Part shown: one piece after another, positions 174 to 27,208 of the stretch | Numbering within the stretch: the first letter of the stretch is position 1 | How the letters are laid out: each line of letters opens with the position of its first letter | Origin: Pseudovirgaria hyperparasitica | Taxonomy: Eukaryota | Assembly: GCA_010093815.1 (NCBI GenBank) | Contig: ML996573.1 | DNA length: 56,372 bases | Reading direction: 5' to 3' (one strand) | Made by a program: the position numbers and the translations under genes | Notes under the pieces: model-generated | What the model was told of the DNA's origin: nothing | The model's input: the letters and a program-made list of their open reading frames with translations, nothing else | Database searches by the model: none

Positions 174-200
174 TCATTAGGAAAGATACAGCGCTCCCAA
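174..200 (+). repeat. Left terminal inverted repeat
   Basis: tcattaggaaagatacagcgctcccaa matches the reverse complement of 27182-27208 (ccattaggaaagatacggcgctcccaa) at 25/27 positions; both mismatches are RIP-type transitions. Followed by short c(c)taagtact repeats. Confidence 0.9.
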
Positions 201-1549: not shown

Positions 1550-2900
1550 GGAGAGTATATAAATCTATAGCGACCGAAGAACGAGTTCGGCGCCTACCCG
1601 CTACTATATTCGTTAAGGGCATGCCTTATTATAATATATATAATAGTAATTATAGATAGTGGGATTGGTCGGAATATACTACTATAGTACTCCTTTAATC
1701 TAAGGAATCTTAGGGACTATAGTAGAACTAACTTTAGAGCCTTAATTACTACTAGCCCTACGAACATTTTCCGAGTTACGCTAGTATTATACTAATAATT
1801 AGTAACACGTCTAATACGACGTAAGTAATATACCTTTACTTCTATATACGCGTTATTACGTATTAGGTTACTTATACTAGCTTTTCTCTTCTCGGCTATC
1901 TTCTAGTCCTAGTATTCGGATACTATCTATCTAACTCTAGAGAGGAGTTAGTAACGGAAGTCTATTATATCTTCCTTTACTAGCATAATAATATAGGCGG
2001 GAGGTGTGTTTTATGAATTATAATTAAGGTAGTAGCTACTAAGATTAATATCTCCGGCGGCTATCTAGGCCGATTATACTAGTATCCTAAAACTATCTAG
2101 GCTACTATCTAGCTATATATTAAGGTAATCGAATACCGGTAGTAACCGGCCTAAAAACGTTATAGCGATCGAAATCTCTATTATCGTAAGGTACCGGTCT
2201 CGTTCGTAAGGCTAAAGACTATCTCTATAGGACCGTCTCTTTTCACGGATAGTTAGTTCTCTCTCTACTACTATTTCTCTATCTTCTTCTATCGAGCTAG
2301 ATAGCTAATACGGTGGAGGAGAGGATGTAAGGCCGTTATATCCCCGGTTACTATTATAGTAGGATGTTACCGTGACGTCTAAGCTATATAGGGCGTTACT
2401 ACTATATTCGCTACCGGTATACCTAGACTACTAGGTTATTAGTAGATAAACGAACGCGTTAAGATAAGCTAGGTATATATATATACATTTTTTATATCGA
2501 TGGCTGTCGTGTAAGTCCCTATTATTAATACTAATACGTGTCTACGTTATATCGTATCTTCGTTTATCTATCCCGTTTAGTTTACTATAGTTACTAGATT
2601 ATCTTCTATTAGTGTTACCGCTACGGTAGCTAGATAGTCCCTTAACCGTCTTCCGTGTTAGAGGTCCTATAGAGAAGATATATAAGAGATTAGTAGATAT
2701 TTTTATTAGTAATAGGTCGGTAACCTACTAGGCGATAATATTAGGTAGCGGGATAATAACTAGCTAGTAGACACGATGAAGGTTTAGGCGTAGACTAATA
2801 TAGTGTTTTTATAGACGCGTGATACTTACGCGTTATTATTAATAATTTTAAGCGAGCGTGTATAGGAATTAAGGGGCTAAGAGCTAGGTAGAAGTTAGAG
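1550..2900 (-). pseudogene. RIP-degraded ORF remnant of unknown function, possibly intron-containing
   Basis: A minus frame reads as protein-like (..EEDRE...ERELxIREKRRSYRDSLxPYERDRYL..) and there is a gtaagt donor-like site near 2824-2829. Boundaries are approximate. Confidence 0.3.
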
Positions 2901-3045
2901 GTTAGTAGGTATATATCGGGCTTTCGACGGGCTTACACCTAACTTCTTCCGGTATACGCCTAGAATATCCGCCGTATGCCGTATTATTACCATCTACTAA
3001 TAATTATACTATGGTATTTTTCCTTTATAGTAACTATACCTCGAG

Positions 3046-6000
3046 ATGCCACGGGCCGTAGTCTCCTACTAATACTATAGTAGAAAGATTAGTAGTGTAT
3101 ACTATATAATCTATAGGCACTATAACTCGGAACTATATAGACGAGCACGGCTTGCCGTATTACTATTATTATTATAACTATTAGGCCCGTGGCTACTACT
3201 ATCGACCGGGTTATAGCGCGGCTTTAGTACTTATAGTTATATTAGTTAATGGAACTCTTTAGTTCGCTCTATTAGTGTTTAGCCGTCGAGCGTTAATTAG
3301 GAGTCCGAGTCTATAGAATTAGATACTTCTACTACTAATATTATCCTATATAAAGATACTACTATTTTCTCTAATCCTATTTCGGACCTAGAATCTATGG
3401 ACGGCGTTACTAGTAGCTATAGTACCGATTTAGTATGTTAGTCTAATATATATAGTAGAAATGCTATATCCATGGCGACGAGGGCGTCTAGTACTATATA
3501 TTTAACGAAAACGTTCGAAGAGGAGAGCGGTATATATATTATAGTAGACTAGAGTAGACGTGATAATCCGTCCGATATAAGTATATATAGTCTAGGTTTA
3601 TAGTAGTAACTAATTTAGTAGGCCCGATTCGGTTAATTCGATAGTAAGTTTATAGAGCGCCTTATAATATGGACGAATCGGTTTAGTATTTCGAATATAG
3701 TATATAATGAATTAACTACTATCCTTAAATAGACTTCCGCTATACCCCCCGACCTTTTTATACTAAAATCTAATATCATGCGTAAGTAGTTATTATACTA
3801 CCCTAAAGGGATACCGTACGAAAGTTGGTAGCGTAGCTACGATATATTCGGCACTACTATAGTCGAATACTAGTATAGGGATCCGCTTACGTTAGTGGAA
3901 TTCCTCCTTAGATACTAACCGTTCGCTAGTAAGCTCGTGTTTAAGCCGGTACGATAATTTACTAGTTTAGGCGACCGGGTATATAGTAAAGCCTATATAG
4001 TAGATGGTTAGTAGGATATGCACGCTACTATTCCGGATAGTACTATCGTCGTCTCTATTATTTTATCTTCGGATAAGACAAACCTTACTAACCATAGTAG
4101 TAATAGAGTAGTATAGCTAGTCTACCTATCTATTTATAATCTACCACTAAACGTCCGCTTATCTAGGAGTCTACTATTATTTCTACTACTTACTCTATTA
4201 CTAGTAGTTAAGCTAGAAACGGTAGCGAATCGCTTTATGTTCTATTAGGTTATAAGTAAAGTTCTAGCCTATATATCCGCCCATGATAGAGTCGTTAACT
4301 ATACTAATTATTATATAGCGTTATAGGCTATATAGAGTACTAGAGTATTAGTATTATATACTAATGGCGGCTCGCGTAAGTACTATCCGCGTTTAGCTTT
4401 ATATATTATAGATTTTCCGGAGTAGGTGCTTGTTACGGGTGTATCCTATCGGTATACATGTCTAATATATATAGTCCCTAGTAATAGACGATAGTATCTA
4501 TAAGAAGCTATTACTAGTGTATAGGAGTTCTATATATACTTATCGTTATAGGAATAGGTTTACCGTGTACGTCGCGAGTTAATAACTAATGGCCATGGTA
4601 GTAAGTATACTAGTGGTAAGATAGATAATGGGACGAGTATACCCGGTGTCTTATCGTTTTCGTCGACGTCTTTCGCGCTAGTAGTATAGGGCTATTATAT
4701 TCGCTAATCGGTTAAGAGTCGGTATTCTAGTAGGTGGATAGAGCTATTGGATAATTTCGCCTAGTTACTTACTAGAGTTAATATACACCGCGCGGTCGCT
4801 CCGGATATTCTACATTAACTATATAAGGGTATATTAGAATACACGTTTAATTAGATAGTCTTATATATTATTAATTAAGAGCGTACGGGATATAAGTTAA
4901 AGGGTGTATTTACCGGTATACCCCCTATAGAACGAGTAAAGAAGGTAATCGATAAGCGATTCGCGTCTATTGGGGTATTCGGTCGTTATAACCTACTTAC
5001 GTATATAACTTTAGTAATATAATAGACGGGGGCGATGTTTAAGCGTATGCTAGTAGTGTTTATAGTCGCGTTTAAACCGCTCCTATGTTATAATCGATAC
5101 TTCCTAAGCGTAGTACGGGCGGTTATTAATATATACATGTTAGCGGCGTACTATACGTATAATACATAGACACTAGTATACTTAGAAGAGGCTATATTAT
5201 ACTTAGACGACCTGAAATACTAGTTTATACTATATTATAGAGATAAATCGGAGGATAATCATTTTAACTTTCCGAAGTTCCATGTATTATCGCACCTGGT
5301 CGATGCTATTAAATACTATAGTTCGTTATATCTAATGTCGGTAGAGCTACTAGAGCGATCTTATATTATAGTAAAGAAATTATATCGAGGTTTAAATAAG
5401 AGAGAGACGTTTCTATAGTAGATACTAGTAGTAGATATACACACGATAAATACTAAAATCTCTAGTAGTATAGAGGTAGCGGCTAGTACTAGTATATTAG
5501 TAGCCTCTAGCCTAGAGTAGCTCGATAATACACGTAAGCTAGTCGGCCAGCGGTATATTCTAAAGGAGCCACGCTAGAGTAAACATATACTCTACGTCTT
5601 ATAGAGCTAGAGACTATCTACGTTCTACTAGACTACCGTTAGTGATCTCCACGACGTGTATAGTAGTAGTTTTATATTACTTAATACGGTTACACCCTTT
5701 ATACGTAACTATCGTAATCGGCTTATTAGGGATAATATATTAAAAGATACGAATATCGAACGTATTAAAAAGGACCCTTCATAGGCACGGGTCCTTCCTA
5801 TCTATATATATAAGACCATGTACGTGCCGATACGACTAGATAGAGATATATCTATAGAGGCCTTCAACCCGATTTAGATAAGATATACCCATAACTAGTA
5901 AAAGAGTAGTAAGGCTAGGGAGAATTATATAATAGTATAGGAGTTTAATAAGGGTAGTAACTACCTTAACGGGAAGCGGGTTAGTAAAGTCCGTATATTT

Positions 6001-6372
6001 CTAGAGGTATACGATATAGAGAGTATTAACGTAACTAGTAGTATAGCGGCGCGATTCCTAGGTGCGTTAGTTAAACTACTTAATAACTCGGGTGGAGGTA
6101 ATATCGACACCATTAGTAGCCTTATACCATTACGTATAGCGGGTTAAAGGTCTAGTAATAAGACTTATATAATGGATAGGTTCCGTGTCTACGAGCTAGA
6201 GTATATCCTACGCCCTATATAGATTATATTACGTTAGTTAGTTACGGATAGTTTATTCTAGTTAAACATGTATAGTAATTAGGGGATCTATAACGAGGTA
6301 TATAACCTAGACTTCTAGGCTATAAATAGACGAAACATAACCGTAGTATTAAAACACGGGCGCGTGTCGTAA
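3046..6372 (+). pseudogene. Plavaka-family transposase (~1108 codons) with a putative N-terminal C2H2-like finger
   Basis: Single frame from ATG 3046 to TAA 6370-6372. Reverted motifs YRDPL..VEFLL...PF..ELVF.P, RVYSEAHTADGWWDM, VVPIILSSDKTNLTNHSGD..AWPVYLSI.NL, DFPEQVL, FNFPKFHVLSH and C-terminal N.YSDW..YNEVYD are typical of Plavaka transposases. Confidence 0.9.
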
Positions 6373-6820: not shown

Positions 6821-6948
6821 CCGGGTATATAACGAGTCTATGGTTAAGTAAGTATTAGGTACGTGACGAGTCTATTAATAAATAAGTGCCGGGTATATAA
6901 CGAGTCTATGTAAATAAGTATGAATAAGTATATACCGGGTATATAACG
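6821..6948. repeat. Three copies of CCGGGTATATAACG downstream of the transposase
   Basis: Copies begin near 6821, 6889 and 6935; the first two extend with AGTCTATG. Confidence 0.75.
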
Positions 6949-7771
6949 CTCTTACTAGGGAAACGTCTTCCTTAAGTATCTCCCCCTTCTAATATTTCTT
7001 CTTCTCTTCCTTTATTCTTTCCCTAGCCTTATAAGTATAGTTAGACTTATATTACTATATTATTAATATGTACGTTCTTGTATAGACCGTTAGAAACTAC
7101 GGTAACTAGATGTATATTCTTATAATAGATAAATATACCGTACTAATACGTCGCATTATTCGTGTTTAATATAAGAGTTTACTACTATAATTATTTGTTA
7201 TCACGCTCGTCTATCTCTTCTTAACGATAGTACTAATCGATAATAATCTATTATAGAGATAATAGTTAGTATTATATACTTCTCTTAAATATTCGCATGT
7301 TAATATCGCATAAGTATATACTTCGCGGAGGTCCTCTATCCTTCCCTTAAGCTACCTAGACTATCCCCTAATTACTAAAAACTCTTATATCTAACTATTT
7401 CCACTATTTATTCCTCGGTTCTACTCGTTAGGCTTTGAACGATAGCGAACTACGACGGGTTAGCGGTTATCTATATTTCGCGTACGCCGAGTTAGTATGC
7501 CTAAATATAATAGATAATAGTATGTTTATAATAATAATAATAATAATAATATTATATAACTAGGTAGAGTAGTACTCTACAGGCCTATGCCTTCTCTAGT
7601 CTAAGCCACTATGTAAGAAGAAACCCCATAGAGAAAAACTTCCTTATATCTATAACTATATCTCGTTAAACCTCTATTTTATCTTAAGTATATAGCTATA
7701 GGGTACGCCTATTAGCCTATAGCCTATATTACTATTATTTCGCCCTTAGGTAGTACGTATAGATACGGAGG

Positions 7772-7802
7772 TTATTAGTTAAGGGCTACCCTTAACTAAT
7801 AA
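7772..7802. repeat. 31-bp hairpin at the 3' end of the LINE
   Basis: ttattagttaaggg-cta-cccttaactaataa, a perfect 14-bp stem. Confidence 0.9.
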
Positions 7803-10800
7803 TCGGGGTTCTCCCGGGGTTCTTCCGGTATATATCGGGTTACTACCGGCGTATACCGGGTCTCTTCCGGTATATATTTCCGGGTCTACTAGTACTAGAG
7901 GAGTAGTAGATATATAAGTATCTATCGGGAGACGTCCTTAGGGTACTTATTAAGCTATTATATAATATCTAAAGTCTTTATAATATAGATAAGCTATTAC
8001 TATTATATATGGAGGTTAGGGTATATAGCTAGATAGTAGCGTATTATACCTCTCCGGCCGTACGCCTTATACTATAGGGAGGTATTAGAAACGCCTCTCT
8101 TATAGATATAGTATAGAAGTCCTATAGCGCCCGTTCGGGCTTAGATAAGTATAGATACTTAGGCTTTCGTTAGCCCTTTATACATCTATTTACTTAGTTT
8201 CTTCTATAGCCCTCGAATCTACTCTAGATATCTATTCTACTAGGAGATCTAGTAGGTATAGAGTGCCTCTTTCTACTTATCTTAAGTCCACGACCGCATG
8301 TTTTTTATAAGTTCTTAAAGGCTCTACTAGTCTAGAAGAGCGTCCGGGTTATCTCGGACTTCTTATACTACTTAGCTAGAGTCGGCTTCTATTAAGTACC
8401 TATACCGTATTCGATTCCGGCCTATATATAGAAGTACGCGGTAATATATACTAATTTATACACATAGCGCGGCGAAAGTATATTCTACGTTTTCTATACG
8501 TTCCTATACTTATTATTTAGTAAAGTATACTACTCTCTATATCTAGTAGAAGTTATATATACTTATAACGTCTATCTTACGTCGTAGTAGCACCGTATTA
8601 GTAGCTTTATATACGCCTAATATAAGACGGAGTATACGGTTCTATATAGATTCGAGCTTTATTCGCCTAGTCTATATAAGGGCCGTATACTAGTACTTAT
8701 GTCCGTACGTGAAGGCGGGTCGTACTATAGATATATATAGCTGGCGTGCCTTATCCCGGGCGGTTCCCTACGTGGAGACTATAATCTATTATATAGCGGC
8801 TTCTGCCTAGAGGGCCCTAGAGACGGTATATACCACTTATGGTCCCTATTTAAGCTTACTATCTAGTATAACTCCGAGCGCGTGTATACTTTATACTAGT
8901 AGTTCGTTAAATACGTCGATTCGGGGGCGTTATTTGTCTTCCCTAGTTACCTATTTCCCTTAACGGTTAATAAAGTATATAAGCTAGTATTTCTCTAGGG
9001 CGAACTTTACTCCGTGGCGTTTTACCTACTAGAGGCACCTCTTATAGTCCTATTCTAGTCGTCTATACGTTCGGTTAGTATTATTATTAATAGCTAGGAG
9101 GTATATGTTATCGGCGTATCCGACTACCTCTATATACTTTATTTCTTAAAGAAGGTCTACCGTAAAGAAGAGGAATAGAATCGGAGAGATAGTGCTCCCT
9201 TATGGGATACTATATACTATCTCTTTATATTCGCTCTAGTACCTAGGGATATATATCTAAGTTATTCTTCCTATAAGGAATAACTATATAAAGCGTGTAA
9301 TCTATTCTAGTATTCGTCTTATCCGGAGGTTATAAATAAGTCTTATATGGTTTATCTTATTAAACGCTCCGGCCATATCGAGGGAGAGAAGCAATACTAC
9401 CCATCCCTACTTCTATACAGCCTAGACGACTTCAATAATATATTAGATAGCTATTATTAGGGAGCTATCTATCTTTACCTTCTAGTTCGGAGGGAGGAGA
9501 TTATATTCCTATACCGTGGTGCTTATCTTCTTCGCTACCGTAGCCTCTAGTATCTTATCTAGGTAGAAGAGAAGGGCGATTAGTCTCTATCCCTTTAGGG
9601 AGTTAGGGCTCTTTCCTAGTTTCGGGAGTATAATAGTATAGGCGACTTAGAAGCTCTAGGGGTGGTACCCCTACGTGACGCATGCTTAGAATATACGAGT
9701 AATAAGTAGTAGGGTCGCTTTTATAGTACTTTTTAGGCATTAATTTAGAATTCTATCTAGTCTAGGTACTTTATCATTTAGGAGTATCTTAATAATATTA
9801 AGTATATCCTCCTCCGTAACTTCTTCGGGGATGTCTACTACGTATAGATATTCGGCGCCGTGAACGTCTAATAGGTCTACTAGTTCCGGGAGAGGGAACA
9901 TAGCCTCCTATAGGGCCTTAGTTTTCTTAAGGCTTATAGAGTATATTCTCCCCTAATGTATTAGGGGAGGCATGAGTAGCGGGGGTATCGGAGTATCTAC
10001 ACCCTTAGCCTATTTCGCTATACGCTATAGCCCTATTACGTATCGTGTCTATTAACTAGTAATTATATACTACTATTTACGCCTTTCGTTATGGAGGACT
10101 TTGTCGCGTTATTATATTACTTCCTTCTATTCTTTCTATAACTCGGGTATTCTCATACGGTATACGCGTGTGTATAGCCTTCGGGCGTCTTATATACTTT
10201 CCTATACTCGAGGAATCCCCTTTGCTTCCAGGGGCCGGTATATTCGGTATAGTACATGTTTATTTCTCGTATTCTAGTATATTTATAGGAGTATCTATAC
10301 GGCCTAGTCTATGGCTAGATTATTAGATATATTAACTATAGAGGGATCTAGAATCGCCGATTCCAGGTCCTTTAGGTACTTTTCCTAGTTAGTATTCTTC
10401 TATATCTATCGTCCCCGTTATTTATTCGGGGTATATATATTTATTACGGTTTCTATACATTTATAGTCGGAATCCGTCTATACCTAGCTTAGGCGGTAGT
10501 ATTAGATCTAGTAACTAATATACTCTATGGCGAAGGTAAGGTTAAGCGTGGACCCGTCTTCGTCCTATTTATGTTTTTTCTATATAACTTATTCTATAGA
10601 TATAAGTAGGTATAGGAAGTCGTGGTAGCGGGTACGTAGTTCCCTTACTCTAAGTTCTTCCCTTACTACGGCTAGGCCTCCCTACTATTAGTAGTAGAGG
10701 TTAAAGTCTCCTAGGAGGATGTGTTACCCTAGTTCCGTAGTACCCTTAAGCATCTCGTCTAGTATAAGTACACGTTATTAGTTATATATATTATATATAT

Positions 10801-11090
10801 ATAGGGGGCCTATATCTATTTATAGATGTAGTATTATCCTAAGGTTATCGCGCTCGGTATATAACTATAATAAGAGTAGTATTAATCTATGAATATAGAA
10901 GAGGACTCGTCTTTCTAGTCCTAGAGGGTGTATAGTATAGTATCCGGGGTATATGGTTGGTTTACTCGTCTAGTAGTGTTTATAGAGTTCCTAGATAGCG
11001 AGTATTATGGCCCCGGTCTCTTCGAGGAGCGTCGCCTAGTTCTCTCTTTTATATTATACGTTTACCTATATAATTTAGAGTATATTCTAG
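7790..11090 (-). pseudogene. LINE ORF2 (APE endonuclease and reverse transcriptase)
   Basis: Reverted motifs LQIMQANV..ILAIQEP (~11085-10985), HILLGDFN (~10700-10724), GIPQGSTISPILFL (~9170-9211) and VVGYADDTYLL (~9095-9128). Confidence 0.9.
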
Positions 11091-11099
11091 TCCCTTATT

Positions 11100-12512
11100 A
11101 GGTACTAGAGAGTATATATATCTATATACTTATTCCTTAGAGGCGCGACTATCCTCGCGCGGTAGCGGCTTTAACTATACCTTTTAGTCGTCCTATCGTC
11201 TTCGGGATAGTCTACTATCCCGCCTAACTATCTTCTAGAGGGGAGGTTAGGGGTATTATAAAGGAAGGGCCCGTAGTAGGTATTATATTCTATAACTATC
11301 TCGCGCCTCTCGCTTTTATCGTGCGAATATATTCTATAACCTATTTACGTTTTATGTACGTTAACGACCACGACGGGTGTTTCCCGTTATAGTTTAAATA
11401 CTATACTATATCTCTATTTCTTAGTCCGTCTCCTCGCGGTTTATAAGGGCACTCCTAGGTAGCGTAGTCCCTACGGCACTATCCGCACTTAGTCTTCTAT
11501 AAGTACCTTTATATAGTATATCTATACCCTTAATAGTTAAAGCACTATATTATTACCTATGCTCTATCCTATGGCTCGGCCATAAGGAGCTCTCCTTCTA
11601 CTAGGAATCCCTTCTATATAATGCGTTATACGAGGGCGGGGTCTCGGAGCTCTATAATTATAGTAGAGTGTTTTTTCGCCGTCGTCTTAATCGCCTATAG
11701 GTTCTTCTACCACGCTTTTATAATCTTAATCCCTAGGTATTTTCGCGTGTTAGATTATTCTATACGCGTAATATTCTCCGCTCCGATAGTCTATCCCTAT
11801 ATAGATACTATATATACTATAATCGGGTATATAGCTACCCTAATAGACGCGCCGGGGAAGATACTACCTATCGCGTTCGGATCTCGTAAGATGTTTTACT
11901 ACGTAGTATTTATTATAGTAGTAAGTACTACCCTACCTAGCGTAACTTTAGTAGCCACGACGCTTAACTATATTCCTTTCTATTCGTTAATCTTATTTAT
12001 AATTTCCTTTAGGGATACCTATTAGACCTACGCTAGTATATTCTTATCCTAGATTACGACACGTATACTATATACTCTATCTATGGTCCTAGTAGTCCTT
12101 AGTGCGGTAGCTCCGGGTATTACTATAATCTAAGCCTACGTGTTAGGGCGCTTACCTTAGAATAGCTCTTTCTAGATTCTCCGTAGGCTGGCTTCTATTC
12201 GGTTAAGTCTACTACTAGGTTCCTCTCGTGGCGACTTTCTTTCTTCCTCTATAATTCCTCTTAGGTTCCGGATAAGGTTCCGGAATATATAAAGAAGAGT
12301 CTTCTTTCCCTTCTCGGCGTCCCTCTCTATATATATTACCTAGTATTTAATTTTATCTAGGAGGGTCTCCCCTCTTGGGGTCCCCTCGGTCTAGGTTATC
12401 TATAGCGCTTCGCACCCTTAGTTAGTACCTATAATTTAGATAGGTGTCTAGCTATCTATATTAATGTCGCTATATAGCCGTTTCTACCGTACTAGTGGGG
12501 GTATATCCGGCA
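11100..12512 (-). pseudogene. LINE ORF1 (gag-like, zinc knuckles)
   Basis: ATG near 12512, a coiled-coil-like segment, and a C-x2-C-x3-H-x6-C-like knuckle (reverted C.NCNGKHPSWS.TC) at ~11357-11400. Confidence 0.75.
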
Positions 12513-12548
12513 TCTACCGGGGTATTATAATGCCTAAGGCCGCTATAG

Positions 12549-12579
12549 TTATTAGTTAAGGGTAGCCCTTAACTAATAA
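12549..12579. repeat. 31-bp hairpin in the LINE 5' UTR
   Basis: ttattagttaaggg-tag-cccttaactaataa. Confidence 0.9.
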
Positions 12580-15529
12580 AAGGGGGTCGGCGTGTCGGCG
12601 TTTATTAGATATAGTCTATACTCGTGTTATTAAAGAGTCTTCGAGTATATATATATAGTATCTCTATACGTCGGTATCGTCGCGTATTATACGCTATACG
12701 TATATACGTGTGTCGGAGGTTATTATACTTGGTATACTCTATCGTTTGATGTATATAAATCGCTGTTTTGCCCTGAATTGACCAGTTTGGTCCGTTAGGG
12801 TGTGAGAAGTTTTTTTTTAGCAAGTATATACCTATACTAATAGTATGTTTATAATAGTATATACTAGATCTTATAGTATTTCTCTTTAGCGGTAGATCCA
12901 CGTGGTCGTAAAGATAGTCTACTATTCTATCGTGCCTATATACTACGCTACTCTTTTATCGTATATAGACGGTATTACTAGAGTAGGGCCATCACCTAGT
13001 AAACTTAACGTTATATATAGAGTATTGTATATTTAACGTCGTTATTTTACGTGCTCTATGTTAGTACGGGATCGGATACCGGCTGTATATTTCCCCGCCT
13101 CTATTAAATTAACGAGTTATTACCAATAACTATACGGACTACTCGTGTTAATATAGCCGTAACGTACGTGTTATACCTACGCCTATTATATAGTATATAT
13201 ATCTTGTCTCTCTATTACCCTAGTAATATATACTATTCTCTATTCCGTCTACCTATGGCTATATCTAGCCAGCCGCGAATAAATAGCCGAGTAGAAGCGA
13301 GTCTCGATCTACTTTATATATTCAGAGCGTCCGACAGGTAGAAACTTCGGGTATATATAGAAGAGTTGATTTAGGAGGAATTTACTAGCCTATTACTAAA
13401 CCTACGTAGTAAGGAAGTAAAGGACCACTATATAAAACGAGAGTATTACCTATAGACGGTCACGGATAAATATATATTTATTAATAGTAGTTATACTATT
13501 TCACGGGTAGATACTATATATTAACTTAATACTATATTCTTAGTATTTACGCGTAACTGGCGGCGGTTAGCTAAATACTATTATATACGTTAAAACGATG
13601 CCCCGGGCTAGACGAGCTATCGTAATATTATATATACCCCACGAACCCGCCTAATATATCTAGCTAACCTAGTTATTTAACCGTCGGACTACTAGTATCT
13701 ATATCTCCTAAGGTAGCCGTGCCGCCGTGTTATATATATATATCTATAGTCCTTATCCGCGATCGTACTCGGGTTACCCTAGTACTAATAACGGCTATAT
13801 AGAATGGTATAACGCCGTTAAATGTTAAGGGTATAAAAATACGCGATATAGTAGGTCTTAGTATAAATAAACTATTAGAATTTATTAGCTTATCTATAGA
13901 TATACTAGGGGACGTAGACGGTTATAGGCATGGTCGCGTCTACCTAGAGTACCCGATTCTACCGAGCGAGTTAAGTAATATAATCCTTTATAAGGATAGT
14001 TTAGACTAGGTATTATAGTAGACTATTAAATAGGTACTAGGCTTAGGACTAGATCGGGTGGTTTTCCGCGTAGGCGATATAAACGGTATATTTAGAAGTC
14101 TACTATAACGTGTTAACTATAATCTAACTATATAGGAATGTCGCGCTATGAGTATAGTAGTAGGATTCATCCGTCTAGCGCGCGTAGGTAAGCTCGAGAT
14201 ATATATACGCCGATAGATATCGGTATATATTAATATATTACGACTACTAAGCGGTATATACTAATGTATGCTAGCATATCTAGTATATACCGGTATAATA
14301 CCGTCGCTCTTCCGTGGACATAACACCATTTATATATCTTAGGTTTTCGGTTATCGGTTATATATAGTGTTATATATACGGCGGATACCTTACTAGATTT
14401 AGGTCTTTCGTCGATAGTATATAGGTACGCCCTAGTCTACTTAATATAGGCGTAGTTAACGCTTCACCTACTTAAACGATGGACGTTAATAACGACGCGA
14501 CTAGTATATTTACCTATTATATTATTAGCTAGCTAACGTTATATTAGGAGAGTCGAGCGCCGCCGTTCTACCTACTCTACCCGTTAATATTAATATGCTA
14601 GTAATTATAACCTAATCGCCTTACGAATCGATATATAATGCTAGTACGCTCGAGAGTTCGAGCGAATATATAAAAGTCCGATATTATATACCATTTAGGG
14701 CCGGGGAGGAAGCGCCTACCGGCGTAGTAGTTATTAAGGCGATGGTAGAAGTCTATATATAACTAGATATACTAAGTCTACCTTCTTCTTATATAGTCCT
14801 ATTACTAGATAATGTTACCGGTTTTAATATTATAGGAGAGGAGTTTATAGATACGAACCTATGAATATCGGTATAATATCGGCTCGATAGTACGTATTAT
14901 AGCATAAGGGAAGTTATATTTAAGCGGTAGTTAGACACGTGCGCTAGTATACTAATGGACATATAGTATCTCTACTATAAATCGAATAGGTAAGGCATAG
15001 CTAGTAATATCTCACTACCTAGAAGAGATAGTTACTATAGAATTTAGGAGATAGACTCGGCGTCTATAGCGTTAGTATATCGGACGGTTAAACTTTTATG
15101 TAATACTATTTACTTATACCTATATTTATCTAAGCCCCGATTCGATAGCCTTCTATAACGTACTATATACTCGGTCGGCGAGCTACTAGACTCATATAAT
15201 AGTAGTATACTACCCCACTTTATATACTACTTAAGCTACTATTACTTTAGCCTACGTTAATCTTAGCTTTCTTTAGTTGTCCCTATATTATAAAAGAAAA
15301 CTTCTATAAACCTTTCCTCTACTTATCTTGGTTTTTAAACCTAAATCTTACCTTCTATACTTTATTCCGTGTTAATTACGACTATATACGAACGCTACGT
15401 CGAACTCGACTCTATTAACCCCTAAGGTCTATTCAATATAATAGTTAATGAGGTTATATTTATAGTTTATAATATAGATTAAGAACTCGTTATATTTAGC
15501 GATATTTAGGACCAGTCTACGCTCGACGT

Positions 15530-15860
15530 GATTAAGCCTTACGTTTAAGCCGAGTCTTACGTTTAAGTCGAGCCTTACGTTTAAGTTAAGCCTTATACTT
15601 AAGTCGAGCCTTACGTTTAAGCTAAGCCTTACGTTTAAGTCGAGCCTTATACTTAAGCCGATTCTTATGTTTAAGCCGAGCCTTACGCTTAAGCCGATCC
15701 TTACGTTTAAGCCGAGCCTTACGTTTAAGCCGATCCTCATATTTAAGTCGAGCCTTATATTTAAGCCGATCCTTATGTTTAAGCCGATCCTTATATTTAA
15801 GCTAAGCCTTACGTTTAAGCCGAGCCTTACGTTTAAGCCGAGCCTTACGCTTAAGTTAAA
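15530..15860 (+). repeat. 18-bp tandem repeat (~18 units) encoding approximately (VQAEPH)n in the helicase frame
   Basis: Unit ~gtttaagccgagccttac, i.e. RIP'd gtt caa gcc gag cct cac; in frame with the Walker A motif. Confidence 0.9.
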
Positions 15861-18800
15861 GCTTATAATACGACTACCGTCTCGACTAATAATAAACTAC
15901 TCGTCCTTAGTATACTTACTAGTAACTACCGTCCTAACGACGAGTATAAACTTAAGAAGGTCCAAAGTAGTAAGGCTCCCGTTCCTACTTACGCTACCTA
16001 TTAGATCTCTCTTATATAGGGCGATCTATAGTTAACCTTTAGGAATGTCTATGGTATTAGTAGAGAAATAGATGGACTTAAGTAGGAACAAGCGAAAACT
16101 CAAGCTAAGCTTAAGCTAGTAGTATTTAAGGCTTATAGTAAAGGTCATAGCTTCGAAGAGTCGATTAGTTATATATATAGATTCCTTGAATTCCCTAAGT
16201 ACCGCTCTTAGATTAAGTTATATACTCGCTTCCGATGGATTAACGAAGGGAAATTAGTATCCTTAATAAGCTTACTCCGCTTTAATCGTACTAATATCCT
16301 TCTATTATCTGACTACCCTACGGTATAGATCTTTAAGGTTAAGTAAGTAGACGACTTTATTAAGTATTTTTCTAAACTTCCTAATCTTATTATAAGCGAA
16401 GCGGATAAAGCTAATATACTATATATTAATACCGGCCTCTACGAAGACCCTCGCGACTTTTAGGTTATTAAACTTATAGCTAGCGAGCTTCTTAGTATAG
16501 ATTTTACTATCCCATTATATGTTAGACCCGATATAATATACGAACGAGTGAAGTAATTCTTTAAAGATCTAGGTACTTATACTATAGTTCGTATCTTGCT
16601 ACCGCTATATAACCCTATGGATCTTACCGGCTTTAATAATAAGCTTAAACTAGAGAGCGATCTAATTAATTCATAGTATATAGGAGTTACTACTCCCTAT
16701 ATATAATACAGTATAATAAGTAGGCCGGACACTTAGCCCTAGATCTCTATTCCCTACCGCGAGTCATTCGATAAGAAATTTAACTATCTAATATATATTA
16801 CTATGAGTACCTTATAAGACGAATAGGCGGATCTTCTATTATCCTAATTCTAAGACGTTACTATCGGGTATATCTAGCTCTTAGGTGTTACTCGGGTGCT
16901 CTTAGCTATCGTCTATCCTATCGATGCGAAAGGATTCTATCGCATAGAACTAGGTAGTTATGGGTACCTTAAAGTAGATTTAAAGGATTATAATAACGAC
17001 GTATACCGCTTTAAAGTCCTTTAATTTCGCCTAGGCGTCCTTCTATTCGAATGCCTCGCTCTAAAAGTCTTTAATAAGGTTAGGCGTCCTTCTAAAGCAC
17101 CTAAGGTACCGATTATATTAATAGATACGGTTACTAATGTAACTTAAGCTCGTCCTAAACATTTTATTCGGACTAGCGATACTAGTTTAAGTACGATTAG
17201 GTCGTCTCTTACTACGCTCATAGGGTTCACGGACGTTCTAGCTTTAGTTAGTGTATAAACCTATAATAAGCTTACTAAGTAACGCATTAATACGTGCTAG
17301 AAACTAATCTACCACGCCGTGTAAGCTCCTAGAGACGACGGCGTAGACGACCACGCCGCTTAGGATGCGTTTAATGCGATGGTCCCTAATGTTATCGTAG
17401 ACTCGGTGTCTATATCTCTAATGTATAGGTCCCCTAACCCTAACGACGAGATTCTAGATTATAGTATAGAGCCTTAGGATACCCTTATTACTCTTTCTAA
17501 ATTATCTATATCCCTAGATAATAATAAGGACATGAATATAGAATATAGTCACGATGTTATTAGCGACGAAGGTTCTATTACTAGCCCCGTCGCCGATATA
17601 TATACACTTCTAATATTATCTAAAGTCTACTCTAGTGTTCTATCCCCTTTACTACCCTCCGTATAGGACCTAATACTTAGTAATAACTACCTGAATCTTT
17701 AACCCGTCGACTATAACCGCTACGTTAAAGATTATAAAAGATTCCACGATCTCTAGAATATTATACGTTTAGAACTATCTCCCTAATACTAGTATATCTA
17801 TATATAGGCGACGGACGTACTTAGAGCTTAGTTTCTACTTCACGGCTATGGAGGAGCTAGGAAGAGCCATTTATGGCTTCGTCTACTACTGGCTATACTT
17901 CTAATTAACGAAATAAACGGTACTTCTATTATCGCTTATACTACTAAGGTAGTTATCCTATCTAGTGATGTAATAGCGCACCTCCCTACGCTAGGTTCTA
18001 CCTAAATATATAGGATATATATATATATTATTATCGGTCTAACTAACGAAACCTACAACAACGCTATAAGAAAAGCATATAAATATATAAGTAATATATT
18101 TACTCGCTATAAGTCTCTAAAGATACTAGTCGTTCTTCGAAGATACCTCGAAGCCGTTAATCGAGAGGTTTTCTTTACTATAGCTAGACTATCTCGTTAC
18201 GGCGACCCTCTTATCGGGCCAACCTAGAACGATATAATAGGCGGTACTATCCTCGCGTAAGCCTAGGCCGACTATAGTAAACGACCATCGGAATATAGTA
18301 CGGATCCCCGTGCTCGTCTATAGAAACTATATACCGGTTACGTTACGCTCGAGGTTGTTAGACTCATTAAATCTCGATACTAATATAAATAGATCCCTAA
18401 GAATTTCGAGAAAGAAACGGCTTAGCTATTACGCGCTATCTATAAATATTATACTTATAATAAGGATATGTCTAAGGAGGAGTATAATAGGATGAACGAG
18501 CTATACCTCGCTACCTAGGATCTAGTTACTATCCACGCCTAGATTCATGTAGAGACCCTATATATTATAAACATCGCTAAGGTAGCCCGTAATATATATC
18601 CGATTTTGGTCGTAATAGAAGAGGCTACGTATATCCTTAAAAGTAATACACTCGGGATTATCGTTAATTATACTACTATAGAATGGTAACCGACATTTAT
18701 TTACGTTGGCGACCCACGCTAGCTCGATACCTACTAGCGTAATAGTACTAATATATAGGCCGTAAACTAGAGGATCTCCTTTATAAAGCGCTAGATATAA

Positions 18801-19856
18801 TATAGTTTCCCGACTACTCGCCTTACCGAGTTAGAACGCTTAGTTCCTAGAATAATAAACGTTATATTACTAATTACTTACTTGGGTAAGCTAACGACCT
18901 CGCCCCGTATAATAAATGATATCGATATACTACTCGCAGAGACCGTTTAATAAATATTTGGAATCCGTGGCTATTAATATATTATATACGCTAATGTTAA
19001 CGGGGATCACGCGTACACGGTGAATAACTTAATATATAACATAGACTTATTACGTTTTACTTAGTGGATTATTACCGAGCTCTTCCGTCATAGCGTCGTA
19101 CTCGATCGCGTGCTCTATATTTCTATATATACCGCCTAACGTAATCTGTTTAAAGGGATAGTTAGGAACTCGCTTCTAACTATACTTGCCGTAGCGGATA
19201 AAGCTCGATTTAATGCCCTACCTAAGCCGGTATAGAAGCTTGTCTAATGGCGTTCATAGGACGGTTCTTAGGGTTATAATAATAATATAGTCCTTATTAA
19301 CCCGGTCTAAACCAATCGCTTCGGCTTCCTCTCGGAAGTAAACCGTAACGTCGTTACTATTACGCGCGCTAAATAGATAATAGTTATTATCGCTAACTTC
19401 GTATCTCTTAAGAGGTAGAAAGTCCTAGACGGTATACTCGGCGAGATATAGAACAAGTGCTCTAAGATTCATGCGATATACACGTGCACGACCCCCGATC
19501 TAGATGGCCTCCCTCTACTCTCTAACATGTCTAATCCCTAATATGGTCGCCCTATACTTAGTATTAGAGAGAGGGGAGAATAAAGCGATTAATAAACTAC
19601 CGATGGTACTAAGCCCCGTAAGCTACTAGTCTACTATAAATGTAATATTAAAGGATATAAGTCTATTAAGTATCTAAGAGGGTCGACGCTTATATATAAT
19701 AACTATTAGGACATCAGCTATAAAGCTAATGTTTACCCTAAACCTAAGACGCTTACGGGTACGTTTTACTATAATTATAGAACTACCAATTATACTTAGC
19801 GTTATTATTCTAGCCGTACTAAATTACTAGCACGTATAAATAGTAATAATCTAGTT

Positions 19857-19940
19857 AATACTACTAGAGCTAATACTACTAGAGCTAATACTACTAGAAC
19901 TAATACTACTAGAACTAATACTACTAGAGCTAATACTACT
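19857..19940 (+). repeat. 15-bp tandem repeat (~5.5 units) in the helicase C-terminal tail
   Basis: taatactactaga(g/a)c repeated. Confidence 0.9.
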
Positions 19941-21339
19941 AACGAAGTAACTACTAGCGGCTAGGACGATAGAGACTACGAGGATGCTAACTAAGACGGC
20001 GGTTTTACGATATATAAAGACATGGAAGTCAATTGGTAATAGTATACGATTAGACTCACGTGTTAGGGCTACTTAGTCACGGCTTCTTAGTAAGTATACC
20101 TCTATATCTATTTTAGATATAGTTACGATATTCTACTAGGTAGATAGTTTAGCTCTATTAAAGACCTATTAAGGGTATTTCTATTACGTCTACTCTAGTA
20201 TAGACGCGCTATTAGATAATACGGCGCCACTAGACACGTTAACTAGTACCCACCGATTAAGAAATAAACATGATTCTATATCTACCACGAGCCCCGGCCT
20301 AATAACGTAGGCTTCCTTTAGTTATCCCCTTTATACTTTTAAAACTACTTCTAGCCTTTATATCGGGAGATATTACTATCTAAAGAGAAAATATAAAAAA
20401 ATATACGCCCTAATCAAAGCCTCTATCTTTAGACTTTAACTATAATATATACGGGATATAGTAAACCTAAATATCGCGTACTTTAAAAGCATGGAAGAAT
20501 ATAATACTCGAATATAACGAAATATAGGCTCACGATACTCGGAGAGTACCTAGGGATAAGCATATGAATATAAAATGGGATAAGACTAACGCGGCACCTC
20601 GTATATGCGTAGCTATATACCGTTCTAGACGTAGTCGCCTACGATATAACATTGCGAGATAAGAATCATGGCTATCCAATTCTATTAAGGGTATTAGACG
20701 ATATAAAGTGAATAATTATACGCCCGACCACGCTACGCTAAGTTACGTGTATGTTATAAACGCGTGTTCGAGGAATAATAAGGATATAAACGAGGTTCAC
20801 CTAGTAGGTACCTCGTTATTCCGGCTTCTACCTCTATCGTCCGACCTATACCTCCGTCTTCCTCGCGCCTATAATATACTACACGTATACTATATAATTA
20901 GTCCGTAAATTATAAACACTATATTAACTATACACGTTAACTATATACGATTAATATATCGAATCCGATTCTATAATAAAGTAACCGTCCGAATATAGTA
21001 ATTACTATAGTACTACTTCGTATCTTAAGCCTAGATATATAAGTAAAGCGTAAAGCTATAGAGGCGCGTATAAGGTAGCTATATATAGAAGTATATATGG
21101 CTACTCTACTCGTAGACCATGGGTGTTGAACTAAGAACGAGCTCGGCGTAAAAAGAGCACGTGAGATTATTAATAAGGTAGCGGGCGAATTCCTAGTAGT
21201 ATAGGAAAGAGTAGTAGAGTATATAGAGATAAAGGCGCTATACTATATCTACGACTAGGTATATACTATAGTATAGAAAACCATATATTATAGAAAAACT
21301 ATCTCCGAGTGTAAGAAGAGGCGTGTAATTATAGCCCTA

Positions 21340-21460
21340 TATTCTACGATCTTATAATCCCTACCTATCACGACCTTATAACCTCCGCCTATCGCGACCT
21401 TATAACCCCTACCTATCACGACCTTATAGCTCTCGTATACTACGACCTTATAGCCTATAC
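21340..21460 (+). repeat. 24-bp degenerate tandem repeat (~5 units) inside an unidentified cargo ORF remnant
   Basis: Unit ~ctacctatcacgaccttataaccc. Confidence 0.75.
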
Positions 21461-22949
21461 TCGTAGCGGTCCCATAGTCTACTAACGTATATACTATAAG
21501 AAAAATTAAATTTATAATTAGATTTAACGATAACGTATTCCTCAAAATACTAGTACCTACGTCTAACTAGTAGAAAGACCATAGCGACGCTTCGTGTATT
21601 AATTTAGTAGTATTTATACGGCGAATTAGAATCTAATACGTAATAAAGACTAGGAGGGCACTTGACTAGAGCCGTACTACCATGCATTCTATTATACTAG
21701 TAGTTAAGTATACGATAAGTAAAACGGAACTAGAGGTAGATATTAGATAGCTCCTATAGTTAGTAATCGAATGTATTCTAGAATATAGTAATAGTATAAT
21801 ACTTCTCGGCCTTAGATAGGATATAGATGGTATACCCGAAGTAAAATAAAATATAAACCAGCGACTAACACATGATAGTATAGACGGCTATATATAGGTT
21901 ACGCTCGAATAAATCCGTCCCTCCGTCCCTAATACTATACTCGCTATGATTAGTATAATAATAGTAATAGAAAGCTACCGTCTATGACGGTAGAGATACC
22001 TACGGAGATAGTATTATAGGTAGTAGATAGTATTACCTAAACGACTTAACCCTTCCTCTAGCGATACTATATATACTACTATCGGTACCCGGGAAGTTAT
22101 AAGACCAATCTATAAGCTCTAAAGATAGTAACTTCGAAAGCCTTAAAAGTACCTTAGATATAGAGGATATGGATATCGCTTTTAAAGACTAATAGAATAA
22201 TAAAAAGGGTGCTAGAGGTAGTAAGAGTAGCGTGTGTACTTGGCTAAGGCGATACGATCCGACGTAAGACGGCTTCTATCTACTATATATTAGTATATGC
22301 CCGATTCTACTAGCTATATAACTATAGCGTATATATTTAGTTAAGACGTTATAATACCGGTATAAGCCGGCGTCTACCTAGTTCACGTCGGGATACGCCC
22401 GGTCCTACTAGCTATATTATTACTACGACTATAATTATATAAGATCTACTCTAATAATTAAATATTTACTTATATACTTTACTTCCTCCGTACTTATTGA
22501 AATTATATTATAATCGCTAAACGCGGTGACTTAACTTCTACCGCCTAAATCTAGTTTTCATATCTTGTCGCCATTAACGCCGTCTTACTACCTATGGCCT
22601 AAGTCGCATATAGGAATAGATAGGTATAACGAGAGTTACGACTATCCTAGTTTAACTACCGGCCATAGAATGGCTAACCGTGACACGTATATACGACGTG
22701 CGGAGGCCTTAAGCGTTAGCGCCCTCCTACCTTATATCTAGTATCTCTAAGGTCTATATCTAATACCCGAAACAAGTCATGATATATATAGGGCTACTAT
22801 TATTAAGATAGTAAGTAAAGAAGTAGTAATAGAGCTTAAAACTAGTAGTATAGATACTACTATACTCTATAGAATAGTTAAGGAAACCGTTACTAGAGAA
22901 TTCAATTAGTATATCGCGGCTATAAATAGTAAGTTAGTACCGATGGTTA

Positions 22950-25900
22950 CGACCATAGATATAACAGAGGCTAAACTAGATATAGATACTATAGGCATAG
23001 GTACGTAGACATAGTTACCGCTAGAATATAAGAAGAAAGATAATATAGAAGATGCTAAAATGGAAGACGACGTAGCTAGTATACTTAGACATATATATAT
23101 ATATACGGTCCTAGATACTAATATTAGAGTAGTATCGAAGATAGGTGCGGCTATAACCACCGACATAGATAATCTACCTATGAATGTCGTCGTGCCTAGC
23201 GAAGCTTATCTACGCGTAAACATACTAGCCATAGAGATATAGTTATAGTTACCGCCGGAATATACGGAGAAAGAGAATGTAGAAGATACTAAAATGGAAG
23301 ACGACGTAGCTAGTATACTTAGACACATATATATATATATAGTCCTAGATACTAATATTAGAGTAGTATCGAAGATAGGTACGGCTATAACTACCGACAT
23401 AGATAATCTATCTATGAATGTCGTCGTGTCTAGCGAAGCTTATCCACGCGTAAACATACTAGCTATAGAGATATAGTTATAGTTACCGCCGGAATATATA
23501 GAGAAAGAGAACGTGGAAGATACTAAAATAGAAGACGACGTAGCTAGTATACTTAGATACATATATATATATATAGTCCTAGATACTAACATTAGAGTAG
23601 TATCGAAGATAGGTGCGCCTATAATTACCGATATAGATAATTCCCCCACGAATGCCGTCGTGCCTCTAGATACCGGCGAGACTTATCTATAGCTACTAGA
23701 AATAAAGAGAATACTCTCGGATAATATAGTAAACCTAGTCGATTCTCCGAAACGCCTAAAACTAGAATATATTATACTACTAGATGTCGACCGGTAGACA
23801 CGTGAAAACCAGGAACTATTCGGGTTAGTAGATAATTTATATAGTAGATATATATTAGATAGTACATTAGCGAACGACCTTAACTTTAAAATTCTTTCTA
23901 TAGACGACGACTCTAATAGAGACGAAGTAAAGCTAGATATAGAGGACTTAATTCCGGTAGATAATAATGTTAGTACGAAACTATAGAAAGCGTAAGTTAT
24001 ACTAAGAAGTAAGTAGGAATATACACTACTATACTAATATACCTATAGAATATTCGCCGTTAATAACTCTAATAAAGTAGTCTAAGCTATCTCTTATTAT
24101 ACGGAAGAGATGCGGTTACTTACTATAAGTATATTTAGGCTTACGCTAGACAACCTAATAAAGGAGTTCGGCTATATACCTACTCTATATCTAGCCTTTA
24201 GTATAAGTAGGTTATATAGGCCATGGGCCAGCTAGTTACTCGCGGTAGTTACTATATTTAAGTAGTAGGCGGGTCCGTAGAAGTGCTAGATCTTAGTAGA
24301 TAGTCTAGGGCTAGGGAAGATAATCGTGCTTATAACGTTCATCCGCCTCGCGTTTTATTAGGACTTTCTACGCGATAATATAGAACTTAATCTAGGAAAT
24401 TATCTATAACCGACTTAAGACTCGGGCATAGATAGAAAGTGCCCGATATAATCTCTATATCCGATTAAATGTCCGTGTAGCTAGACCGATAATTTCGTCC
24501 ATGTGCCCCGCCTTTAAGGACTATTTATACTATACTACCTAAGGTCCCTTCTAATAGCGCATTGGCCGTAGCGCTTTAAATAGATGTATAATAATACGGA
24601 TAGTATATTTACCGATTAAATCGATAAACGGAACCTAATAAAGATAATAGTACGGCTAACGTACTCGAAAACCCTTACTAACGCCCCTAGTATCCGATAA
24701 TTCTCGTATATAGACCGATAATACTTAGCTAAGAGATACCTACACCCCGAATGGGAACATAGCGTTAATATTAGTAATACTACTAAATTCGAGACCGACG
24801 AGGAGTATATCGTTAGAGCATGGTCGATTCCCGTTAATAGAACCGCTACTACCGAATTTCCGTCGCGATACACGAAGAACTATATAATCTATAGCACCGT
24901 CTAGAGTATAGAACCCTAATATCTTAAATCTTTTAAGGGACGCGTGGTTATAAGAGTAAAGAGGGCGAAACAATTTAGTACTAAAAATACTTAAACTCGT
25001 GAAGTAGCATTCCTTAGTATATTAATAGTAGACAAGTTCTATTCCGTAAAGAACCCCGATATAAAATAGTATAAATATACGATATATAATACCCTTATAT
25101 TTAGTATATAGGTTAGTGTAACGCCCCTCTCGAATAGTCTAGTAGATATTCTAGCGGCTATCGAGGTAGGTGCTCTAGATAAGTTACCTAACTACGTTAA
25201 CGATAATACTACTAAAAGGGTATTTAAGAGCCTATAGAATAAAACTATAAGAAAGATTATTATAACGTGGTCGAATAAACTCCTTAGTTTAATAAAAGGT
25301 AAGTCGGCGGACACGATGGCCGCGATAGTCCGTAGGGCATTAGAAACCATAGAAGGTAAGCGTATACTACGTATGGTAGCCGATTAGTATTTACTATTCA
25401 TCCTATAACGGGGACTACTAACTAAATAGTTTAATGGAGAGGTATATCTATCTACGATATTAAAGCTAGTAGTAGAGTTTATATCTATCCCGGCTATAGA
25501 ACTAGAGAAGATAATCATATAGTTATATAAGAATAGAGGTAGATAGTTTAATAATCTATAGCCTAACGGAACGCCGCGGGACTCGTAGATATAATCTACC
25601 GCCTAGAGTAAATCGAAAGGGGGTACCGGGTCCGGGCTTAACGTATACTACTATTAGGCTAGACTAGCTACTACGTGTATACTACTTATATACCTTACTA
25701 ATAAAAAGATAGAAGACGAGTAAATTAATATTACGCTTACGCGTCGGAGGGATAGTAATAATAGTATACTAAGTAAGATAATCACTAATCCCGTATGCGA
25801 AGCGCTTCTATAGCTAGATAAGGCCATGCGAAAGAAGATAGTATCGCTAGCTAATAAACACGCTTTAAAGGTAAACTAGATCCGTAACTTCATTAATAAT

Positions 25901-26520
25901 AACGTTTATAATGAAAGTACTAGACGCGCGCGATAAACATCCGCCAACTACCCGGAGAAAATCGTACTCGTATATACCGTACCGGTAAGCTTAATATTCC
26001 TATACTTAGTAAGTGTTTACACTACCTACTAGTAACGTAATTCACTAATATATATAGGTACTACGTCCATATATATAAGCGAAAATATTAGTATATTTAC
26101 TAGCCAGCCTAAGTACGTCCGAATTAAATAAGGTATATAGATTATTTAGATCGACTAAGTCGGATTCTCCGTGTATTCTACTAGTATTAGCTTCGTAGGT
26201 CTACGAAGGATAAGACCTAATAGTCGCTGGTTTTATAGTGTTAGTAGACTAATACTTACGTAAGGAGACGTGGCCGTAGGTAAGTATAAGATATTATCGC
26301 CATAGATAATATCGGCCTATAGTATATGCGTATACTTTAATTTTAGACTATTTAGAGGTTAAGGCTAGACTCGCCGCGTTAGGTAAGGTAATCGAAAGCA
26401 CGAGGATATAAGCCTTAGACCTAGGAAAAGAAGATATAGCTACGGTAGAGATAGCTATATCTAATATACTAGTAATAGGCGTACGCTTTAATCCCATAGA
26501 GATATAGTAGTATAGAAGTA
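22950..26520 (+). pseudogene. SNF2/SWI2-family ATPase with N-terminal 78-aa repeats
   Basis: Same-frame reverted motifs ILAD.PGLGKTI (24290), P.SLL..HW, LIVDEFHSVKN (25022-25054) and SATPLSNSL. After a probable intron (gtaagt at ~26009) comes QAS.RCHRHGQ.RP.VYAY.L (~26278-26340). Ends approximate. Confidence 0.82.
22990..23665 (+). repeat. 234-bp tandem repeat, ~3 copies
   Basis: at(g/a)gaagacgacgtagctagtatacttaga at 23060, 23294 and 23528. Confidence 0.95.
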
Positions 26521-26649
26521 AGTAAGGTAGTTAGTTAATTAGCTTCTAAGAGACTAGATAGCATGGTAGTATAAATACAAACCGCTGTTTACTCGTGATT
26601 ATATATCTATATATATCTATACGTGAAGAGAAATAAGATATTTATTCTA

Positions 26650-26970: not shown

Positions 26971-27004
26971 TTAAACGTTTTCTTAACGTTCGATAGAACG
27001 ATTC

Positions 27005-27180: not shown

Positions 27181-27181
27181 A

Positions 27182-27208
27182 TTGGGAGCGCCGTATCTTT
27201 CCTAATGG
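27182..27208 (-). repeat. Right terminal inverted repeat
   Basis: ttgggagcgccgtatctttcctaatgg. Confidence 0.9.

Follow-up and report, generated by a model that had tools for sequence, protein, structure and literature searches.

The stretch of Pseudovirgaria hyperparasitica DNA analysed here (56,372 nt of contig ML996573.1, assembly GCA_010093815.1; hereafter the window) carries on its plus strand, at 15384..20039, the remains of an Upf1-like superfamily 1 (SF1) helicase gene (1552 codons, start uncertain), which lies within a Plavaka DNA transposon and of which a diverged paralog is found in a Ty3/gypsy retrotransposon of the same genome. The frame is interrupted by 93 stops, every one of them TAA or TAG, and the composite index of repeat-induced point mutation (RIP) amounts to ~1.2-2.0 across 15-20 kb, a strong RIP signature around the helicase; in the window as a whole this index is ~1 or higher almost everywhere and becomes negative solely in two gene islands (at ~35 and ~54 kb). 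No intact helicase copy was encountered (20 of the 20 copies checked are dead). The original prediction of a transposon-borne Upf1-like helicase, made from the letters of the window, is confirmed as a real observation, but the gene that it described has been destroyed by RIP.

Read with X in place of stops, the frame matched the Pfam family AAA_12 (PF13087, E 1.3e-7) at aa 1145-1338, i.e. in the RecA2 region that includes motifs IV-VI (18816..19397; this and the following features of the frame lie on the plus strand unless stated otherwise), and a profile of 6 element copies could be aligned with 19 intact relatives at E 7e-35, the 550 collinear columns starting ahead of motif I and ending beyond motif VI. 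Both matches bear out the full SF1 motif set that had been claimed, and with motifs I-VI in order and two RecA domains (the profile-matched relatives carry AAA_11 and AAA_12) the gene qualifies as Upf1-like SF1B. The variants within this motif set are less special than had been implied. Motif I (Walker A; 17841..17867, read from the window and from the copy pile-up) spells HGYGGARKS, the last-but-two codon being Arg in the window and in 20/20 piled Plavaka copies; the AGKS of the HGYGGAGKS first reported is a back-inference through RIP, although one gypsy paralog copy (on C4) does retain GLGGAGKS. The EEA of motif II (18618..18626) is real, with a Glu codon in 20/20 copies, but it is not a divergent substitute for DEA, since five intact SF1 genes of the host share it; as a mark of ZNFX1 orthology, too, EEA was rejected.

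Three degenerate CCHC zinc knuckles ([CY]x2[CY]x4[HY]x4[CY]; 19632-19673, 19695-19736 and 19767-19808) follow the helicase core and constitute the only triple in the window, in which 23 single matches to the pattern occur among 112,740 six-frame positions. The gag-like triple thus described is genuine, recurring with the same spacing in both gypsy paralog copies, but its knuckles are RIP-degenerate: a strict CCHC was sought in those of all copies and found in none, and in certain copies 5 of the 12 ligand positions are still occupied by Cys or His. Towards the start of the frame, an 18-nt tandem repeat of 17.8 units (15535..15855; 15-19 units across gap-free copies) encodes in frame a VQAEPH-like hexapeptide, which reads (V/A)Q(A/V)(E/D)P(H/Y) where copies retain C/G; the ~18 copies originally counted are there, but they are specific to the Plavaka version and missing from the gypsy paralog, so they are no feature of the family. 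Two open frames (15532-16035, plus strand; 15429-15896, minus strand) were rejected as genes, being merely other frames of this repeat. A second tandem repeat (15 nt, 5.7 units; 19856..19941) lies within the low-complexity tail.

As regards the proposed absence of introns, the gypsy paralog on C15 aligns in one frame with aa 170-1495 of the helicase (38% identity), and over this span the single frame is supported, both by the alignment and by the third-position bias described below; stop density lends it no support, as counts of 92-93 in the helicase frame, 105 in another plus-strand frame and 87 in a minus-strand one do not single it out. We infer the start codon, and likewise the reading of the repeat region (aa 1-170). 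The listed sequencing runs comprise two DNA runs from one study and none of RNA.

That the helicase is encoded by a mobile element has held up for two unrelated carriers, the first of which is bounded by terminal inverted repeats (TIRs) together with target site duplications (TSDs). It occupies 175-27207 of the window with a nested insertion and measures ~21.7 kb without it. Its left TIR (26 bp; 175..200, plus strand) starts with CATTAGG (CATCAGG in less mutated copies) and is complementary at 25 of 26 bases to the right one (27182..27207, minus strand), which marks a sharp element end in 9/9 aligned copies. A genome search with the TIR gave 26 matches (0 for the reversed control); the termini read CATTA/TAATG in most copies, and the unmutated CATCA..TGATG-type form persists in 2 of the 26 matches. 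Eight of nine paired copies are flanked by 2-bp TSDs (TA five times, TT, AA and CG; TA itself is RIP-enriched), the window copy being the sole one without a matching pair (173-174 vs 27208-27209), and it is possibly recombinant or mis-joined. The element encodes a RIP-dead Plavaka DDE transposase (2998..6300, approximate ends, plus strand; PF18759 E 3.7e-29, Pfam match 3856-4485) with the motifs SSDKT, DFPE, DILHQLYKG and PKFH. Judged by its ends and TSDs, which fit the published definition of PlavakaB (5'-CATCA..TGATG-3' termini, 2- or 3-bp TSD; PMC12730594), and by the Pfam match of its transposase, this carrier is a PlavakaB element. A Helitron or a Starship was rejected as carrier, since the element has TIRs, a Plavaka transposase and TSDs of 2 bp.

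A query with 17700-19500 returned 33 genome matches, corresponding to 27 loci after split pieces were merged and one diverged match was set aside; at 20 of these 27 a Plavaka match lies on the same strand <=30 kb upstream of the helicase, and 3 of the remaining 7 are near contig starts. Because 1084 of the 1101 variable columns among 9 Plavaka copies are purely C/T or A/G, the history of the element reads as a recent burst followed by RIP. The nested 5.3-kb element (7527..12838, minus strand; RVT_1 E 4.6e-14 at 8933-9598), which from its motifs and its lack of long terminal repeats (LTRs) we take to be a long interspersed nuclear element (LINE), lies outside the Plavaka element proper and is a later insertion, because the 9/9 other copies join 175-7536 straight to 12838-27207 and miss the piece between; as a later insertion it was rejected as the carrier of the helicase. 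Further contents of the transposon are a RIP-dead DUF6532 cargo gene (1591..1995, minus strand; PF20149 E 2.5e-6, above cut-off) and a long RIP-dead frame recognised by low one-frame stop density and SNF2-like motifs (22200..26400, approximate ends, plus strand), for which neither an SNF2 Pfam match nor a PDB match was found and which contains a 234-bp repeat (23011-23665) whose unit number differs between element copies. Two other regions (12900-15200 and 20100-22200) have locally few stops and are possibly further cargo genes; the single frame scanned of each gave no Pfam match. The window copy also has an assembly gap (316-360) in its subterminal tandem repeat, and the start of a second, inverted Plavaka copy (L046), which faces this one head to head, lies ~6.2 kb upstream of the window.

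The second carrier, to which the diverged match belongs, is a Ty3/gypsy retrotransposon with one copy on C15 (G000:C15:785418-839758, plus strand, interrupted by nested insertions) and another on C4 (G000:C4:1167210-1051881, minus strand, drawn out to 115 kb by nested insertions that include a Plavaka copy), which together are spanned by the loci L039, L040, L060, L135-L137, L141, L145 and L150. Both copies possess ~245-bp direct repeats (i.e. LTRs) with TG..CA ends, a 5-bp TSD and a polypurine tract, and neither owns a Plavaka transposase or SNF2-like frame; LTRs and TSDs exclude a segmental duplication as the origin of the paralog. The pol order is reverse transcriptase - RNase H - integrase - SH3, with RNase H above the cut-off (E 4e-8) and reverse transcriptase (E 0.0045), integrase H2C2 (E 0.11) and SH3_Tf2-1 (E 4e-4) below it yet in order; gag, protease and chromodomain gave no Pfam match, a chromodomain-like stretch being visible by eye. 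The helicase has a frame of its own, which lies after the end of pol and before the 3' LTR. Because transversions between 5' and 3' LTR number 0 in each copy and 8 between the copies, the two represent separate retrotranspositions of already diverged lineages, both with the helicase. The genome total for this element is 2 full copies plus a pair of LTR fragments (C3:323203-323317 and C4:512301-512357), the fragments being short and apparently less mutated. The helicase is, accordingly, an accessory gene common to class I and class II elements.

As transversions cannot be made by RIP, they were counted by codon position (1/2/3) as a test of selection. Between the two gypsy copies the helicase differs by 24/13/116 transversions (p 7e-27), i.e. 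116 of 153 fall at third positions, and this bias is present in the N-terminus, the core and the knuckle tail alike; the controls from the same copies gave 1/1/37 (integrase) and 7/6/10 (non-coding spacer), and the comparison of the Plavaka with the gypsy version of the helicase gave 195/162/413. The third-position bias indicates that strong purifying selection acted on the helicase in the gypsy lineage, and this selection shows the gene to have been functional there.

A profile search of 1.84 billion representative proteins returned 45 weak matches (best E 3e-9) and no close intact relative of the helicase. The matches are ZNFX1-like proteins and an unnamed group marked by a DxR...S[LI]G insert, to which proteins of Aspergillus multicolor (KAL4911555.1) and Penicillium canariense (XP_056545506.1) belong; the nearest protein clusters are placed in Ascomycota by the atlas, and the mean column identity of the clade is ~18%. 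An insert of this type (here DPRARL...) lies at 18303..18338 of the window, as aligned column by column with the 19 intact relatives, and was found in none of the host helicase open reading frames (ORFs). Part of the N-terminal region specific to the clade is recognisable at 16647..16823 by a hidden Markov model of the relatives' N-termini (E 4e-5 on the copy pile-up), which has no match among 11 host helicase sequences. The intact set of the host comprises Sen1, Upf1, Dna2 and Aquarius (named by Pfam), genes that we take from their motifs to be Hcs1-like, MOV10-like (L119) and ZNFX1-like (the last label being based on motif and BLAST neighbours), and a helicase linked to an RNA-dependent RNA polymerase (RdRP). 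At the latter locus (L114:2141-6600, minus strand) the host RdRP frame continues straight into the Upf1-like helicase frame, and the two are probably one fused silencing gene. The host has 24 AAA_12 matches, and none of them proved to be an intact copy of the clade.

In a tree of 35 of 49 sequences (those without a recognisable motif I or VI were dropped, and 5 partial host genes were added by hand) the element helicase falls inside the unnamed group with a bootstrap of 100, and all 11 host genes lie outside it. Approximately unbiased (AU) tests, run on 25 of the 35 tree rows, covered Upf1 (p 0.0007), ZNFX1-like plus Aquarius (p 0.007) and MOV10-like (p 0.006) and rejected each of these groupings, and in the tree Sen1 and Dna2 lie outside the bootstrap-100 clade. 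Both lines of evidence place the helicase apart from the host genes, and not nested in an ordinary host orthogroup. Moreover, the helicase frame yielded no SEN1_N, Dna2 nuclease, NF-X1 or UPF1_Zn_bind (CH) domain, in a sequence where RIP lowers the sensitivity of Pfam. On these grounds we rejected an orthologue of Upf1 (an intact host Upf1 existing elsewhere), a ZNFX1/Hrr1/SAD-3-like protein (in spite of the EEA), a MOV10/SDE3-like one (tested against the presumed host MOV10-like gene) and Sen1 or Dna2 (both for want of a diagnostic domain and for their position in the tree); a viral SF1 helicase was rejected as well, the best families being AAA_11/AAA_12 and the best folds cellular Upf1. A homolog search by indexed words, run with the X-read protein of the window, gave 0 matches among 8000 candidates, because RIP removes shared words, and the same search with the clade alignment gave 4, mainly of Sen1 type; the best PDB sequence match is ZNFX1, a weak one (E 7e-5). 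The context of the clade's relatives gave no case in viral contigs and, for P0047, none in metagenome. Taken together, profile, insert and tree assign the helicase to an unnamed ascomycete Upf1-like (SF1B) clade of which no intact host member was found.

The predicted structure of an intact relative (P0003, pLDDT 71) matched the Upf1 core in Foldseek with an E of 3e-34 (TM 0.80 to the Upf1 helicase domain; Sen1 structures are also among its fold matches) and comprises a stalk, a 1B barrel, a 1C insertion, two RecA domains and an extra N-terminal alpha/beta domain, for which the atlas gave a sub-threshold lead alone (0.76). Another member of the clade (P0037; L123:654-5600) is intact and intron-free and has three N-terminal CCHC knuckles; the small ORF beside it may be of the fungal HeLo-like N-terminal type.

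Upf1-like enzymes travel along single-stranded nucleic acid in the 5'->3' direction at the expense of ATP, unwind duplexes, strip off proteins and remodel ribonucleoproteins, and CCHC knuckles bind single-stranded RNA; because of the Upf1-like fold of the intact relative and the presence of knuckles, the predicted activity of the element helicase is RNA-handling. As the transposition chemistry of the two carriers has nothing in common, and what they do share is the need for transcripts that survive surveillance, our best single guess for its putative role is counter-silencing or transcript protection, which we put forward tentatively and at somewhat less than even odds. One version of the gene reached at least 27 loci as cargo of the cut-and-paste element, and a diverged one was the additional ORF that follows pol in a Ty3/gypsy retrotransposon; according to this proposal, the helicase would in either case act on the element's own RNA, where it could unwind double-stranded or aberrant molecules or displace host factors ahead of RdRP, Dicer, Argonaute or nonsense-mediated decay (NMD). 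It provided no lasting shield from RIP, every examined copy having since been killed. We have little doubt that a once-functional accessory helicase was present in both carriers and was killed by RIP in every copy examined; the whole explanation, in which this gene is joined to counter-silencing or transcript protection, stands in our judgement at about even. Its widest form, in which the Upf1-like family would be an ascomycete counter-defence cassette, swapped between cut-and-paste and LTR elements as a general suppressor of RNA silencing and surveillance (an RNA-acting fungal counterpart of TET/JBP and of VANDAL-type anti-silencing cargo), is conceivable and on balance doubtful.

Several observations weigh against this explanation. 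The elements were silenced by RIP regardless of the helicase, and the Plavaka copies differ from one another nearly only by RIP, their few transversions being unbiased (12/19/13), as expected of decay after insertion; the helicase may thus be a passenger in the Plavaka element. The tree has a long branch (1.7), contains relatives picked by the query profile and was computed without a mixture model and with a shortened bootstrap, and a quick tree gave no starred group containing the element helicase. CCHC knuckles occur in only 1 of 22 relatives, and there at the N-terminus. Furthermore, no transposase is visible by eye in the 6.3 kb around the one intact relative with readable surroundings (L123), and the wider clade may consist of ordinary lineage-specific host genes.

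The alternative that survives best, although we consider it unlikely, is that the helicase assisted the life cycle of its carriers, either by remodelling RNA for translation, packaging or reverse transcription (in the gypsy element) or by Sen1-like resolution of RNA:DNA hybrids and R-loops (in both). The gag-like knuckles and the ORF3 position in the gypsy element would suit such a helper, the Upf1-like family does include the hybrid-acting Sen1 (represented among the fold matches above), and the same alternative has been raised for insect elements (PMC5563155); a DDE transposon, however, needs neither packaging nor reverse transcription, and most gypsy and Plavaka elements do without a helicase (none is present in the portion of the Plavaka literature examined). 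A benefit to the host seems less probable still. ZNFX1 functions in antiviral RNA sensing, and a fast-evolving fungal defence gene of this kind, spread by elements and selected for the host, would account for a clade that is patchy, weakly conserved and ascomycete-wide, as defence genes often are, and for the weak ZNFX1 match in PDB, and the small, possibly HeLo-like ORF next to the intact L123 member would be in keeping with it; yet the ZNFX1-like grouping was rejected, and carriage in multiple copies means exposure to RIP, with 0 intact copies among the host's AAA_12 matches. Passive capture of a host gene by chance into two elements, roleless in both, is very improbable and for the gypsy version largely refuted, for although no selection is measurable among Plavaka copies and large elements do acquire passengers, the third-position bias is strong when two gypsy copies of separate insertion are compared, both carriers hold the gene at full length, in one frame and without introns, and no intact host donor was found.

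The counter-silencing reading can be set beside what is known of comparable elements. PlavakaB (CMCT clade; Kojima 2025, PMC12730594) was described from Agaricomycotina with TET/JBP cargo, and in the parts of this source at hand the word helicase appears once in the text (for a Helitron) and nowhere in the supplement searched; our carrier resembles it in its Plavaka transposase, CATCA..TGATG-type ends, 2-bp TSDs and accessory genes, and differs in its RIP-proficient ascomycete-type genome, its size of ~21.7 kb, and its SF1 helicase, SNF2-like frame and DUF6532 gene. In the red alga Bostrychia, giant Plavaka elements (17-19 kb; bioRxiv 10.1101/2025.02.11.637652) are likewise large and have several accessory genes (PAG1-3: methylase/SET, 2OG oxygenase), which move between transposon families, but no helicase was found in the portion of that study consulted. 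The cargo published for Plavaka in these two sources (TET/JBP, methylase/SET, 2OG oxygenase) points to chromatin or silencing. Insect LINE and LTR retrotransposons are a parallel for an accessory SF1 helicase in a retroelement (PMC6338049, PMC5563155), there of RNA-virus origin and with weak silencing suppression; the insect proteins are viral-type and fused to ORF1/ORF2, whereas ours is cellular Upf1-like, a separate ORF, fungal, and also present in a DNA transposon. The ORF3 genes of bdelloid rotifer LTR elements (exonuclease, esterase, env; PMC5408684) similarly are extra, enzyme-coding ORFs after pol that are common to several retroelement types, but they are confined to retroelements, in contrast to a 1300-aa helicase that spans class I and class II. 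For giant elements of eukaryotes, a review names helicases, in the part drawn on, for Helitrons and virus-like elements only (PMC6431247).

With the named Upf1-like SF1B helicases (Upf1, Sen1, Dna2, IGHMBP2/Hcs1, MOV10, ZNFX1, Aquarius) the element helicase shares the motif set and, through its intact relative, the stalk/1B/1C/two-RecA fold, and it differs from them in its separate clade with an insert and an N-terminal domain of its own. Searches of the open literature gave no case of an Upf1-like helicase of cellular type in Plavaka elements or in gypsy elements of fungi, although Repbase or subscription papers may contain one; both carriers are of known kinds, and the notable novelty is an Upf1-like helicase common to transposon classes. 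Cargo that is kept by selection and traded across unrelated element classes usually points to what limits the elements; known Plavaka cargo targets DNA or chromatin marks, and the helicase would target RNA. If it does suppress quelling, meiotic silencing or NMD, it would make fungal RNA defence accessible through a transposon gene and would assign a function to an unnamed ascomycete helicase clade, a question made testable by intact natural relatives (e.g. KAL4911555.1).

Among the other features of the window is a RIP-dead element with 233-bp direct terminal repeats (40711-48102), which is also inserted near and inside other copies. A non-RIP host gene, in which a glycosyltransferase DXD domain (PF04488) is encoded, lies at 34775-35950 (plus strand), and where its frame ends a 107-bp direct repeat begins (35934-36040 / 53229-53335); a nest of insertions may interrupt the 3' end of this gene. 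A non-RIP protein kinase exon (PF00069) is located at 54243-54917 (minus strand).

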